DNA of 64,000 nt from Octopus vulgaris (taxonomy: Eukaryota): contig OX597823.1 of assembly GCA_951406725.2 (NCBI GenBank), forward strand, positions 60,078,001 to 60,142,000, written 5' to 3'. Under the pieces are notes generated by a model, which was not told the origin of the DNA, made no database searches, and saw nothing but the letters and a program-made list of their open reading frames with translations. Position 1 is the stretch's first letter; the number at the start of each line of letters is the position of its first letter. Of the stretch, positions 3,061-57,130 are shown piece by piece. The translations under genes were made by a program, and so were the position numbers.

Positions 3061-3104
3061 AAGTTAATCCAAACATGAAAACACGAAGAGAAAACACAAC
3101 AATG
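3061..3104 (-). mobile_element. 3' tail fragment of the hammerhead-bearing repeat at 24135-24330
   Basis: agttaatccaaacatgaaaacacgaagagaaaacacaacaatg is a diverged reverse complement of 24293-24331; embedded in (TA)n. Confidence 0.7.
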
Positions 3105-3150
3105 TATATATATATATATATATATATATATATATATATATATATATATA

Positions 3151-3262
3151 GGGGGAGAGTTCATGAAAAAAACAAAAGACGAAGACAGGTGGTGTACAAA
3201 ACAAACTGATGTATTAGTATAATGCTCAGGAATTGAAAAAGTCTTTTATGTTTCGAGCCTAA
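3151..3262 (-). mobile_element. TA-inserted short repeat with partial hammerhead (GCTC-GAAA); same family as 49837-50030
   Basis: Colinear similarity to 49837-49946; reverse complement reads ggctcGAAAcataaaagac. Confidence 0.7.
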
Positions 3263-3545
3263 TGTGTGTGTGTATTTGCATACAGGAGACCAAGAGCGTG
3301 CATACACCACTATATATATATGTAAAAATCAAAATAAAAAATGGAACAAGGACATAACAGGCGACATAACAGAACATTCAGACAGTAGGTGATACAAAAA
3401 AGGACAGGAAAAAACAAGGATGGGTCATTTGGAGCTTTCAATCTTCAGTCTAGGAGCAGATCACCTATATAAGATAAGAGTAGAAATGGAGCAAAATGTA
3501 ACGATTACAAGTTGAATGATCATAGTTTACTTATGATCTAGAAAA

Positions 3546-3625
3546 TATTTACAGCTGTTTCAGTTTGTATTTTTTAGTTAGATTTTATGTTTATCTTGTT
3601 CCATGTAACAGACATCATCAGAATG
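3546..3625 (-). ncRNA. Type I hammerhead, inverted copy with partly decayed stem II
   Basis: Reverse complement reads catt CTGATGA tgtctgtta...tacaaact GAAA CAGCTG TA aata. Confidence 0.6.
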
Positions 3626-3883
3626 ATTTGAACTTTACCAGAGGAATATTGTCTGGAGATCGAAGATTGACAGGAGAAAAAAGAAAAAGGAAAAAAGGAA
3701 AAGGTTCGTTCATCTACTTGAAGTAACTGTACACACATGGGGCCATCTTTTAATGATGCAAAAATGTAAACCTAAAGATCTAATGAACGTTTTCTTTTTT
3801 CCTTTTTCTTTTCCTTCTCTTTTTCCTTTTTTCTCCTGTCAATCTTCAATCGCCTGTCAATATTCCTCTGGTAAGGTTCAAAT

Positions 3884-3962
3884 CATTCTGATGAAGTTTG
3901 TTATATGGAACGAGATAATGCAAGTTTACTTAAAAAATAACAAACTGAAACAGCTGTAAATG
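3884..3962 (+). ncRNA. Type I hammerhead ribozyme, canonical core
   Basis: Stem I catt/aatg; CTGATGA 3888-3894; perfect 9-bp stem II agtttgtta/taacaaact; GAAA 3947-3950; palindromic stem III ACAGCTGT; predicted cleavage after GUA at 3958. Confidence 0.8.
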
Positions 3963-4640
3963 TTATCTCAGCCATAATTAAACTAAGATCATTCAATGCT
4001 AATAATAATCAACTTTTAATTGTTACATGTTGCTCCCTTTCTTCTCTTATCCTATATGAATATATTAAACCACAGTTTACCCTTAAATTACCAACTACTG
4101 TTAACCTTACAGCAAGACCTATACATAGTTAGATGATGCACCAGTAGTGTCTAAGTCCCTTAGATGGTTGCATAACCTCTAACTCATAATTTTTCTATAG
4201 CAACTTTATATATATATATATATATATATATATATATATAATAAATTAATAAATAAAACATATGCATATATACATACATATATGTACGTACCTACCTCTA
4301 CATGTATATATACATGCATATATGGGTACAGGACACCAAAAAAACGTTGAACACAATGAGAAATTAAAACATAAACACAAAACCAAGGAACTGGACATTT
4401 TGCTTAAACAACGAAAAAATAGAGTACAGGACAAATAACACAAGGAAAATTCCCCTTCTTCAGTCGCCATGGTTTCATCTATTCATTTAAATATATATAT
4501 TGTATATATATATTACACATACACATATATATATTCATATTTATATATATACATACATACATACATACATACATACATACATACATACATACATACATAC
4601 ATACATACATACATACATACATACATACATACATACCTAA

Positions 4641-4944
4641 CAGGCACTCTGTTGGTTACAGTGATGCAGGTTCCAGTTGATCCAATCAACAGACCAGCCT
4701 ACTTCTGAAATTAATGTGTAGGTGGCTGAGCACACCACAGACACATGTTCCCTTAACATAGTCCTCAAAGCGATTCAACATGAAACAGAATGTGACAAGG
4801 CTGAAATTCATTTTTGCTAGCAGAGTGGATTGGAGCAACATGAAATAAAATGTCTTGCTCAAGGACACAGCATGTTGCTGGGAATTTAAATCACTGCCTT
4901 ACAGTCATGAGCCAAACACCCCCAACCACTAAGCCATGCACCTT
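4641..4944 (-). mobile_element. tRNA-headed SINE, family C
   Basis: Reverse complement begins ggtgcatggcttagtggtt (A-box-like); body shared with 5222-5482 and 37125-37443. Confidence 0.8.
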
Positions 4945-53916: not shown

Positions 53917-54469
53917 ATCATTAAAGGCATGTAAATTGCTGTGATCCTTTAGACAGTAACAGAAGAGGAGATAGCAGCATTCTATGTGTGTATTTTCTAT
54001 ATATATATATTTTAATACACACACACACACATGTATGTATGTTTGTATTAGTCCAAGGCCAAATAAAGCCATGTGAGTGGATTAGGTAGGGAGAAACTGA
54101 AAGAAGCCCCTTATATATAAATAGATATGCATGTATGTATACATGTATATATATGATGGGCTTCTTTCAGTTTCTTTCTTTCTAATTCACTCACATGGCT
54201 TTAGTTAGCCTTGTGCTATAGTAGAGACACTTGCCCAAGGTACCATGCAGTGGAACTGGAACTAGAACCATATTGTTTGAAAGCAAGCTTCTTACCACAG
54301 CCACACCTGCACTAACGATATGATAATTAATCACATAAAAAAATTGCTCAAGGTTTGTTATACATTTTTAACATCTTTTTTTGTAGAAATTGAATAATTT
54401 CATTATTACCATATTTGTTATAACTTTGAGAATCTTTCCAGTGAAAAATTATCATTTGCTTTATCTAAA

Positions 54470-54790
54470 AATTGGATAGAATCAGCAAAAAAATATTTAG
54501 TTGTAAAAACTCATATGACACTTACATGTCATCTTCTACAGCACCATACTCTTCCATCTCCAAGAAATCCTCTTTAGATATTTCTTCACCGTGTGATTCA
54601 ACTAATTCTTTTCCCTTTATCTCATTAAATCAAATCTGGTGTGCCAACCCCACCAACAACATCTAGTAAATTTTTTTTTATTAACTCCTCAAAACCTAAA
54701 TCTTACTCCAGACACAATTTATTGTGGTTATTTTCACTTCTTATCATATTACAGTCAAATACTCCAAAATTCCTTTATAGTAACTTTTGT
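54470..54790 (-). mobile_element. Tigger/pogo-like transposase C-terminal remnant
   Basis: Minus-strand pieces EVKITTINCVWSK, GFEE and ELVESHGEEISKEDFLEMEE resemble the Tigger1-type ELL.SH..ELT.EDL.E motif. Confidence 0.6.
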
Positions 54791-55204
54791 TTCATGTTGT
54801 CTGAGAATGGACTGGACCACTACATATAAATAGTAGCAGTTTGACTAAGTGAGGTAATTTGTGCTAGTTCCACAGTTCGTGTGTTGATAGTTCAAAGTTT
54901 ACAGTTTGAATTAGTGTGTTGGCTCTTTCAAGATTGTTGTTACATTCCATGTGGTCACTGCCGTTTGTTTTGATTATATTGCTATTACACTGTTGCAGTG
55001 TATTCGTTTATCCATAAAGAAGTAACAGTTTCACATTATAAGAATTTAATTACTTAAAGGTAGGCTATTAATTGCAGTTTAGTGGTCCCTAAACATTGTT
55101 GACCTACAGAATGGTTTCATACAAAACAATTTTTCAACAGACCAAGAGATCATGCACAAATGCATAATATGTAACTTTATTAATATATATATAATATCCA
55201 TGAT

Positions 55205-55508
55205 GGCACATGTTTCAGTGGTTACAGCACCATGAGATAGTGTGTTGTGTTCTTGAGCAAGACACTTTATTTCATGAAGCTCCAGTTCACTAAGTTGTAA
55301 GAAATGAGGTGTGACGTCACTGGTGCCAAGCTGTATCGGCCCCTTAGCCTTTCCCGTGGATAACATTGGTGGCATAGAGAGGGAGACGCTGGTATGTATG
55401 GATGACTGCTGGTCTTCCATAAACAACCTTGCCCAGCCTTGTACCTTGGAGGGGGACTTTCTAGGTGCAATTCCATGATCATTCATGACTGGAGGTGGGG
55501 GTCTTTAT
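55205..55508 (+). mobile_element. SINE family C variant
   Basis: ttcttgagcaagacactttatttca core plus a 3' part shared with 15806-15987 and 61783-61940. Confidence 0.78.
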
Positions 55509-55529
55509 CCATTATATAATTTCCATCTA

Positions 55530-56660
55530 ATGCTTACCACCACCCTGTTTGGCCTTTTTTCACCGTCATGCTGAAACTTACATTTAGAACATCAAATGAT
55601 GGTATCTACCTCCACACCAGATCTGATGTACTCACCATGTGCTCATCAGAGAAATGGACGACACAGCATTGACAGTGCACTCTTAGGGGCAAATGCTGTA
55701 CCTCATGGACAAACTTTCAAAGAGCCTGCCAGGAATTCAGCCTGCCTATCGGTTTGAAGAAGACCGATGTACTGAGCCAAGGTATCAAGCACTGCTGTCC
55801 ACCACCACCACCACCGTCACCCTCAACAACTTCAAGCTGGAGGTAGTTCATGAATTCTCTTACCTCAGATCCACCATCTCTGATGACCTCTCCATGGACC
55901 CTGAGATCAGCAGGTGAATTGGACAAACATCTTCTACATTTGATAAGTTCACAAAGAGAAAACAGAAAACTGGCCTCAAACTCCAAGATTGCTGTCTATA
56001 AGGGATGAGTCCTCAGCACACTACTTTATGGCAGTGAGACACGGAGCCTCTAGTCCAGACAAGAGCAGCATCTCAAAGTTTTCCACCTTCATAATCTGAG
56101 ATGCATTTTGGATATCAAATGGACTGACCAAGTCATCAACTCCAAAGTCCTCAACTGTGCCAAGATACCAGTATGTTCACCCTGCTCCAGCAGTACCATC
56201 TGTACTGGCTCGGTCAGGAATATCATATGCTGGATGAGAGGATTCCAAAAGACCTCCTGTATGGGGAATTGACCACCATCAAAAGAGCACAAGGATGATC
56301 TCATATTCATTTCAAGGATGTCTGCAAGAGAGATATGAAGTCAATAGATCTGGATGTCCTGAGATGGGAGTAGGTCACAAATGTTTGCCCACACTGGAGA
56401 CAAATATTGCAAAAGGGAATGAGGCAAAGGGAAGAGAAGCTGGAAGTTGCCAGCAAAGAAAAGCACACTCAACGAAAGGAAAAACCAGTAGCACCAATGG
56501 AGGGCTTCACCAAATGCAGTCACTGTGTACATGACTTCCACTGCTGTGTGATCCTGTGCAGTAACAGCAGATGCTGCATCTCTATCTACGGCTGATACAA
56601 ATTCTCCAGCACAGATATATTATCTCCCAAGATCGATGGATCCCCACCAATACCACTACC
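55530..56660 (+). mobile_element. 5'-truncated decayed RTE-clade LINE (RT C-terminal half and 3' end)
   Basis: TLFG, DGIYLHTRSD, LEVVHEFSYLRSTISDDLSMDPEISR, VLSTLLYGSET, FHLHNLRCILDIKW, IPKDLLYGEL, FKDVCKRDMK. Confidence 0.92.
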
Positions 56661-56924
56661 ACCGCTAGAACACAATGCATGTTTATCCTTTATCTTCTAC
56701 CTGTTTCCACCCTTTGGACTGTGACCAAGCCGGAGCACTGTCTTGAAGGGTTTTAATTGAACAAATTGATCCTGGTATTTATTCAGTCCCTTTTGATGAA
56801 CAACTAAACTATGAGAATGTAAAGAAATCAACACCAGTTGTCAAGTTTTGGTAGAGAACAAACAGAAACACATAGACGCACACACATAGACATACATATA
56901 TACATATATATATATATATATACT

Positions 56925-57130
56925 TTATTTAAAGCAGCAGAAAATTCTACAAAACCTGTTACTCTGAGTTTCGCGTTGCCTTTCAAAAACTGTCTGATGA
57001 ATGGCAACGCGAAACTCAGAGTAACAGGTTTTGTAGAATTTTCTGCTGCTTTAAATAAGCATATTACTCTACCACTGGTATTTGAGTACTCTTTTTTCCA
57101 CCTTGTTTCACATTTATGTGTTTACTCCGG
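56925..57130 (+). mobile_element. Palindrome (56925-57058) with hammerhead and 3' extension, in (TA)n
   Basis: About 56-bp perfect arms ttatttaaagcagcagaaaattctacaaaacctgttactctgagtttcgcgttgcc and reverse complement. Confidence 0.85.
56986..57032 (+). ncRNA. Type I hammerhead ribozyme, canonical core
   Basis: aaaactgt CTGATGA atg-gcaa-cgc GAAA CTC-A-GAG TA acaggtttt: stem I 8 bp with one bulge, short GNRA-capped stem II, stem III ACTC/GAGT, GUA triplet. Confidence 0.7.

Follow-up and report, generated by a model that had tools for sequence, protein, structure and literature searches.

Hammerhead motifs and probable truncated Penelope-like elements in a 64-kb window of the Octopus vulgaris genome

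Short repeats that differ in sequence and carry the same ribozyme fold raise the question of whether they are retroelements in their own right, remnants of larger elements, or products of chance. The question arises for a 64-kb stretch of the 2.8-Gb Octopus vulgaris assembly (G000:C10:60078001-60142000; hereafter the window), in which a first-pass annotation marked eight sites as type I hammerhead ribozymes and took the repeats bearing them for non-autonomous ribozyme retroelements. We name the eight repeat families after these sites (3884, 24207, 25290, 32209, 40347, 42575, 49927, and 56986). Very probably, the repeats are the 5'-truncated 3' ends of eight endonuclease (EN)-bearing families of Penelope-like elements (PLEs), each with a minimal type I hammerhead predicted to cleave only as a dimer or with the assistance of protein.

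Minimal hammerheads are known from the terminal repeats of PLEs, where they occur mostly singly, probably in truncated elements, and show weak activity as dimers (Cervera and de la Pena, PMC4209133). The insertions of EN-bearing (EN+) PLEs exhibit inverted arms, tails, and a bias toward (TA)n (Craig et al. 2021, PMC8557442). For PAc, a Poseidon element of the green anole, internal initiation by the reverse transcriptase (RT), protein-assisted cleavage, and insertion without cleavage in vitro have been reported (Frangieh et al. 2024, PMC11167929). Among cephalopods, 235 hammerhead 1 ribozymes were counted in the giant squid genome (PMC6962438), and a 2026 repeat annotation of O. vulgaris lists 31 recently active Penelope-like families in a main text that contains neither "ribozyme" nor "hammerhead" (PMC13282606). 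No published description of the octopus hammerhead PLE families reported here turned up among the literature matches listed.

Hammerhead motifs and their excess over chance

The window, which is approximately 34% GC and rich in microsatellites (143 rows of Tandem Repeats Finder output), was scanned with a strict descriptor (stem I of at least 3 bp, core C(U/C)GANGA or UUGANAA, stem II of at least 4 bp, GAAA, palindromic helix III, and NUH) and with a relaxed version in which one defect was permitted. Five strict and eight relaxed matches were found. Two sets of 200 local dinucleotide shuffles gave means of 0.025-0.045 strict and 0.2-0.275 relaxed matches (maximum two each), and the reversed window gave none; the strict matches thus stand at least 100-fold above the shuffles. 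All eight sites have the topology stem I-core-stem II-GAAA-stem III-NUH-stem I and begin within 4 nt of the coordinates first assigned to them. The window also holds three extra copies (3546-3625, 25099-25136, and 40399-40435; Table 1) and a damaged one at approximately 48379 on the minus strand, whereas a relaxed match at 47172 lies outside all eight families and may be a chance match.

The core, GAAA, and NUH elements (with core CUGANGA or UUGANAA) are canonical or of the U3-A8 variant in six families; the 24207 family departs by C4 and the 49927 family by U6. Both helix I and helix II are paired, helix I being weak in the 32209 family and helix II in the 56986 family, and helix III is a short palindrome. 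Between families the stems differ in sequence yet still pair, C3-G8 and U3-A8 both occur, and position 7 is free to vary while the other core positions are conserved. In the 49927 group, U occupies position 6 in 46 of 48 distinct copies, position 7 is G in 17, A in 17, U in 11, and C in 3, and the rest of the core holds. A natural A6C hammerhead has low activity, and U4C is mentioned as a known variant (PMC3088659); no A6U hammerhead turned up among the literature matches listed.

Folding of ten monomers gave a pairing probability of 0.00 for A15.1-U16.1 in every case, and the helix III segment was self-complementary in seven; both features are expected of dimer-type ribozymes, and the connection drawn by the first-pass annotation to PLEs and to their minimal, palindromic, dimer-type hammerheads was right. 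RNA reads aligned to 24125-25420 (three raw runs labelled as another organism, approximately 6% of each, and one contig set, at 88% likeness) showed no pile of molecule ends; the two strands were about equally represented and most reads lay on other repeats, so these data are uninformative on cleavage.

Genome DNA searches returned 325-3111 first-look candidates per family, counts that are lower bounds, with 40 scored per family. Identity of the best copies reaches 95-98% in four families and is 82-94% in the remaining four. Forty 10-kb stretches at round coordinates on 29 contigs (400 kb in all; U6 cores allowed) yielded 19 strict and 25 relaxed matches, against shuffle means of 0.28 and 1.36. 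Seven of the 19 belong to one tandem array, and the other 12 amount to approximately one strict motif per 33 kb, which by extrapolation from 400 kb suggests on the order of 1e5 per genome. The earlier figure of one ribozyme per 8 kb counted imperfect copies in a window that is 2-3 times richer than average. A strict scan of all loci fetched revealed approximately 15 further hammerhead types (with different stems, and with palindromes such as CATATG, CAATTG, CGCG, and CTATAG), so the eight families of the window are a subset.

Continuity with Penelope-like coding sequence

No PLE protein match was obtained in the window by tblastn, in agreement with the first-pass annotation, which had recognised neither a Penelope RT nor a GIY-YIG open reading frame (ORF) there and had proposed extending the repeats 5' in search of linked ORFs. 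That extension was productive: all eight families continue 5' into RT and/or GIY-YIG coding sequence in some genomic copies, and the description of the repeats as non-autonomous mostly fails.

Same-strand EN or RT thumb sequence lies upstream of the 25290 repeat in 6 of 30 loci, where an RT thumb, a CX4CxxC linker, and GIY-YIG were found; the last scored above the Pfam cut-off (PF01541, E 1.4e-5), and three database relatives at 51-53% carry RVT_1. The 24207 family is joined to RT and EN in one locus (L350), whose 3' untranslated region (UTR) is common to L351 and L352 at 79-82%. For the 49927 family, the 3' UTR is collinear with ORF ends at 72-80% in two loci (L220, L221). The families were first said to have no obvious mutual similarity outside the core, and blastn of the window segments indeed found no link between 24207 and 49927; their proteins show them to be sisters (RT 69%, EN 60% identical by blastp).

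For the 32209 family (EN end upstream in 6 of 25 upstream-walk loci) and the 40347 family, the coding sequence recovered is confined to the EN side. In the 40347 family, whose motifs may resemble those of Nematis, three loci have a CX5CxxC linker with GIY-YIG (Pfam E 6.1e-7). In the 3884 family, with an EN end related to that of 32209, same-strand EN was found upstream in 5 of 25 loci and RT sequence only within an inverted arm. The 42575 family, presumably of Penelope/Poseidon type by its motifs, follows an RT and an EN that lack a linker zinc finger; EN lies upstream in 2 of 25 loci, and 24 of the 25 EN-selected matches listed lead into the same 3' UTR. The 56986 family is represented by a 589-codon open frame in one locus, with a 3' UTR common to other copies at 83-89%; the frame has a CxCX5C linker plus CxxC/CxH motifs, as given for the Hydra clade (PMC8557442). 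The Hydra-clade copy at L222:5777-7543, with a 589-codon open frame, goes unrecognised by Pfam, so Pfam-based annotation will overlook such copies.

Motifs and pairwise blastp would divide the families among Neptune-like, Hydra-type, and Penelope/Poseidon-type PLEs and one unplaced CX5CxxC type. As in the EN+ clades Neptune, Hydra, and Penelope/Poseidon described by Craig et al. (PMC8557442), the GIY-YIG domain is C-terminal, the inverted arm is 5'-truncated, and a tail is found at one end. The CX2-5CxxC linker of those clades recurs in the 25290, 24207, 49927, and 40347 families, and the Hydra motifs recur in 56986. The (TA)n bias is likewise shared, and it is absent from the 42575 family, which has no linker zinc finger. 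Tail length, at approximately 60-170 nt, exceeds the 30-40 bp of that study, and the portions of it covered here offered no counterpart to the tRNA-derived segment in the 3' UTR of the 42575 family.

Three apparent links were rejected. A 1500-nt 5' extension in L198/L213 (49927 family) is shared flank; ORFs neighbouring 40347 copies in L142/L150 belong to the 49927 group; and the near-complete ORF behind a 49927 copy in L230 represents a separate insertion that carries a hammerhead of its own. This L230 element (2202-4490, 3' UTR to approximately 5500) is a Neptune-like ninth family with 744 codons before the first stop, and its 3' UTR contains a further U3-A8 hammerhead as well as tandem repeats of approximately 60 bp in which TGACGT and ATTGG motifs occur; L398 carries the 3' end of a relative.

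Insertion anatomy and alternative explanations

Copies share their 3' ends and vary in 5' extent, with a 5'-end hot spot in the 42575 family. Two 3'-end classes, a tail being present at one end, were seen by eye in the 3884, 32209, 40347, and 42575 families. Masked self-blast of the window, used in place of an inverted-repeat tool that returned (TA)n arms alone, showed that five of the eight sites are arms of local inverted repeats, and the window holds five inverted pairs. Elsewhere in the genome, inverted upstream arms accompany 6/30 (25290), 25/30 (56986), 13/25 (3884), 6/25 (32209), 21/25 (40347), and 17/25 (42575) loci, that is, 20-84% in six of the eight families, and 0/25 (24207) and 1/25 (49927) in the other two. 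The loci are the top-scoring matches to the window queries, and the counts are inflated where the query spanned the junction (56986, 40347). In the 40347 family (e.g., window 40380-40400), the fold-back junction lies at one and the same place, 10-15 nt upstream of the core, in many independent copies, in part a query bias.

All of the repeats had been said to abut microsatellites. This stands for (TA)n in six families: (TA)4 follows the 3' end in 29/30 (25290), 30/30 (56986), 25/25 (24207), and 17/25 (49927) loci against a background of 14%, and in 16/25 (3884) and 15/25 (32209) against 24%. It does not stand for 40347 (7/25) and 42575 (4/25), which are at or near their background of 18-19%, and the (AAT)n at 42500 is a part of the 42575 element and not its target.

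To what was observed directly (the motifs, their excess over chance, copy number, shared 3' and variable 5' ends, inverted arms, and continuity with RT/GIY-YIG) we add a mechanism modelled on other PLEs. The element protein would nick AT-rich or (TA)n DNA; reverse transcription would begin downstream of the ribozyme, at fixed positions 70-330 nt away, and would usually stop early, leaving short stumps that still hold the ribozyme; and a second cDNA or a fold-back would give the inverted arm. An internal start of reverse transcription, as in PAc (PMC11167929), would explain the fixed 3' ends and the tails. The ribozyme itself would act in transcripts of tandem full-length copies, and the stumps in the window are most likely dead by-products.

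The principal alternative is that some families spread chiefly as short non-autonomous elements that derive from PLE ends and were mobilised in trans, as solo retrozymes or SINE (short interspersed element)-like repeats; a preprint that derives retrozymes from PLE ends (10.64898/2026.07.22.740005) is in its favor. Retrozymes that lack long terminal repeats (non-LTR retrozymes; PMC7229834; 10.64898/2026.07.22.740005) resemble the window repeats in their type I hammerheads, PLE link, and high copy number, but they are tandem 150-450 bp non-coding units with mostly canonical hammerheads, whereas the window repeats are dispersed ends of coding elements. No head-to-tail units of 150-450 bp were found, an extra direct copy lies within 1.5 kb in just 0-2 of 25-30 loci per family, and all eight families are linked to ORFs; the repeats do not fit the definition of retrozymes. 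A separate locus, L358:2100-4720 (G000:C1:20002100-20004720), does resemble a genuine non-LTR retrozyme with the insertion anatomy of a PLE: it is an array of approximately 359-bp units, five direct and two inverted, with (TA)n flanks, in which each unit has a type I hammerhead of canonical size (6-bp stem I, 4-bp stem II, CCGG palindrome).

The best candidate for such amplification is the 42575 family, by way of RNA polymerase III (Pol III). Approximately 150 nt upstream of its ribozyme core the family carries a full-length tRNA-Arg(ACG)-derived segment and (AAT)n. We identify the segment as tRNA-derived because genomic tRNA-Arg(ACG) genes can be aligned to it over its full length (scores of 55-74 vs. 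a shuffled maximum of 41-47); a search of 18 loci of the family with ARAGORN gave no tRNA, and Rfam found none in the segment at E<=1. The 3' UTR has probably acquired this segment as a tRNA retrocopy. Among ribozyme-selected copies, 18 of 25 start within approximately 30 nt of one another at this segment, as does the window copy at 48551. The A box is intact in 14 of 24 copies, the B box in 12, and both in 8. Runs of four T (T4) are scarce on the sense strand, where 2486 nt contain a single run against an expectation of 4.1-5.3 (P 0.02-0.04 with two shuffles, uncorrected for 14 regions), and just six private T4 runs occur in 27.6 kb of 29 copies.

Other observations count against this reading. 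T4 scarcity is not significant under dinucleotide shuffling (P 0.14), the region is 1 of the 14 tested, and two RTE-like ORFs are low in T4 runs as well. The tRNA-derived segment is internal, within the 3' UTR of numerous ORF-bearing copies (at least 2290 first-look candidates for the EN stretch). With inverted arms present in 17 of 25 copies and a natural palindrome at the start of the segment, template switching explains the pile-up of 5' ends equally well. We therefore consider it unlikely that this Penelope/Poseidon-type family, after taking up a tRNA-Arg retrocopy into its terminal repeat, now employs that copy as an internal Pol III promoter. Were it to do so, a TTTT-free transcript would pass through the whole ORF and be trimmed by the hammerhead just downstream, and truncated copies would be self-transcribing, PLE-mobilised SINEs; both of these corollaries are doubtful, as is the accompanying proposal that a U6 hammerhead serves the family for which first-look candidates are most numerous. 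That some of the eight families were amplified chiefly as non-autonomous derivatives is itself improbable. As a separate observation, G000:C2:211887733-211907121 contains approximately 24 matches to the tRNA-Arg(ACG) motif, many of them 206 bp apart, and is probably a tandem tRNA gene array.

It is scarcely credible that the motifs lack ribozyme ancestry and arose by chance or as degraded mimics within AT-rich repeats: three of the eight sites miss the relaxed descriptor and Rfam calls none, but the shuffle controls in the window and in the 400-kb sample refute it, and the stems of each family still pair, with C3-G8 and U3-A8 both in use and position 7 alone varying freely.

The sites that miss even the relaxed descriptor yet show the topology are 32209 (at 32295, a stem I of 2 bp and one substitution within the palindrome), 56986 (at 56994, a stem II of just 2 bp and a GCAA loop), and 49927 (at 49959, G12A and C3U, which bears out its first description as degenerate); among their relatives are copies with a perfect palindrome (CACGTG in 10 of 18 pattern-matching copies of the 32209 family), intact G12 and C3 (49927), and a constant 2-bp stem II (56986). 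Several observations do weigh against our preferred explanation, that the repeats are truncated ends of EN-bearing PLEs with dimer-type hammerheads. Predicted minimum-energy folds of dimers often differ from the active fold. The Rfam hammerhead models, proposed at the outset as a check, gave no gathering-level match in five loci, the canonical-looking L358 array included, no match at E<=10 around 42575, and none in the best 150 of 285 rows of a window scan dominated by microsatellite matches to microRNA models. The links of the 24207 and 56986 families to coding sequence come from one ORF-bearing locus each, and that of 49927 from relatives at 72-80%. Pfam assigned no family to 6 of 12 proteins, including all Hydra-type pieces and the 42575 EN piece, and several RVT_1/GIY-YIG scores were below cut-off. 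Most ORF pieces are broken, and no complete copy with an ORF between two pseudo-LTRs (pLTR-ORF-pLTR) was present among the stretches fetched, the longest of which (2.4-3.3 kb) have no upstream direct repeat. The first 25 loci of the 24207 family have short 5' ends, which leaves room for non-autonomous subfamilies, although 3 of 30 walk loci extend 850-950 nt 5'. The 5'-end pile-up of the 42575 family belongs here as well.

Features of the window and relation to described elements

Coordinates of the PLE-derived features are given in Table 1. Further local inverted repeats outside the eight families lie at 4669-5451, 7090-7209, 52456-53042, 54054-54213, 57622-57906, and 63184-63268, several of them involving SINE-like repeats of the window. 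Elsewhere, five copies of the 40347 family, approximately 16-48 kb apart and in one orientation (G000:C1:206653686-206735370), suggest a large tandem duplication.

Table 1. PLE-derived features of the window, with clade labels suggested by motifs and blastp and with predicted ribozyme cuts
Position	Strand	Feature	Hammerhead	Remarks
3061..3104	-	3'-terminal fragment, 24207 family	none	between two (TA)n tracts
3151..3261	-	3' fragment, 49927 family		truncated within stem II
3467..3710	-	Inverted arm, 3884 family	3546-3625	
3710..4205	+	Hydra-type PLE 3' end, 3884 family	3884-3962	10-bp stem II; CAGCTG palindrome; predicted cut after 3958; ends at (TA)n
18275..18347	+	Tail fragment, 40347 family	none	
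24133..24331	+	Neptune-like PLE 3' end, 24207 family	24207-24241	C4 core; ACGT palindrome; predicted cut after 24237
25041..25167	-	Inverted arm, 25290 family	25099-25136	
25167..25420	+	Neptune-like PLE 3' end, 25290 family	25290-25327	U3-A8 core; ACCGGT palindrome; predicted cut after 25324
32140..32304	-	Hydra-type PLE arm, 32209 family	32211-32297	long stem II; 2-bp stem I
32305..32550	+	Partner arm, 32209 family		truncated within ribozyme; bears longer 3' tail
40255..40395	-	Arm, 40347 family (CX5CxxC linker + GIY-YIG family)	40347-40383	U3-A8 core
40393..40590	+	Partner arm, 40347 family	40399-40435	decayed hammerhead; longer tail
42500..42625	+	Penelope/Poseidon-type PLE 3' end, 42575 family	42575-42620	truncated within internal (AAT)n
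48287..48551	-	Second copy, 42575 family	with deletion at GAAA	tRNA-Arg-derived segment (48482-48551), then (AAT)n, then hammerhead
49836..50030	-	Neptune-like PLE 3' end, 49927 family	49928-49962	decayed at positions 3 and 12
56925..56985	-	Inverted arm, 56986 family		truncated in core
56981..57131	+	Hydra-clade PLE 3' end, 56986 family	56990-57027	2-bp stem II; near-palindromic CTCAGAG

The families are real and abundant new members of an arrangement that has already been described, namely hammerheads in truncated PLEs. With the hammerheads of Cervera and de la Pena (PMC4209133) they share the type I fold, a short helix I, an additional base ahead of helix II, palindromy of helix III, and the U3-A8 variant; in both cases a genome holds numerous dissimilar families, the motifs are mostly single and lie in truncated PLEs, and opposite-strand pairs are 100-700 bp apart. 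Figure S3 of that study includes the molluscs Lottia and Crassostrea, and no octopus entry was found in the parts of its supplement searched. The rows of that figure that were compared do not include the helix II of 50-65 nt in 3884 and 32209, the 2-bp helix II of 56986, the C4 of 24207, and the U6 of 49927. The extrapolated density here, on the order of 1e5 per genome, is higher than the 2,000-9,000 obtained there with another descriptor. For PAc (PMC11167929), as here, RNA-seq showed no reads ending at the cleavage site; its ribozyme has been assayed, and needs the element protein and is dispensable for insertion in vitro, whereas those described here are predicted from sequence. Schistosome SINE-like elements (PMC6765202) resemble the 42575 family in having a promoter-like segment followed by a hammerhead, and they differ from it in that the tRNA-derived segment of 42575 lies within the 3' UTR of an ORF-bearing PLE.

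If the Pol III proposal for the 42575 family were true, it would represent a novel mode of transcription for a retroelement with coding capacity and would open a path by which PLEs give rise to SINEs. The known association of PLEs with hammerheads is extended to the octopus at large scale, with on the order of 1e5 motifs if the 400-kb sample is representative, and short repeats that would otherwise be left as "SINE-like" or unclassified can be sorted into PLE clades by their ribozymes. Young families with copies 95-98% identical, at least three PLE clades, and core variants U3-A8, C4, and U6 together provide material for learning what the hammerheads of PLEs do.

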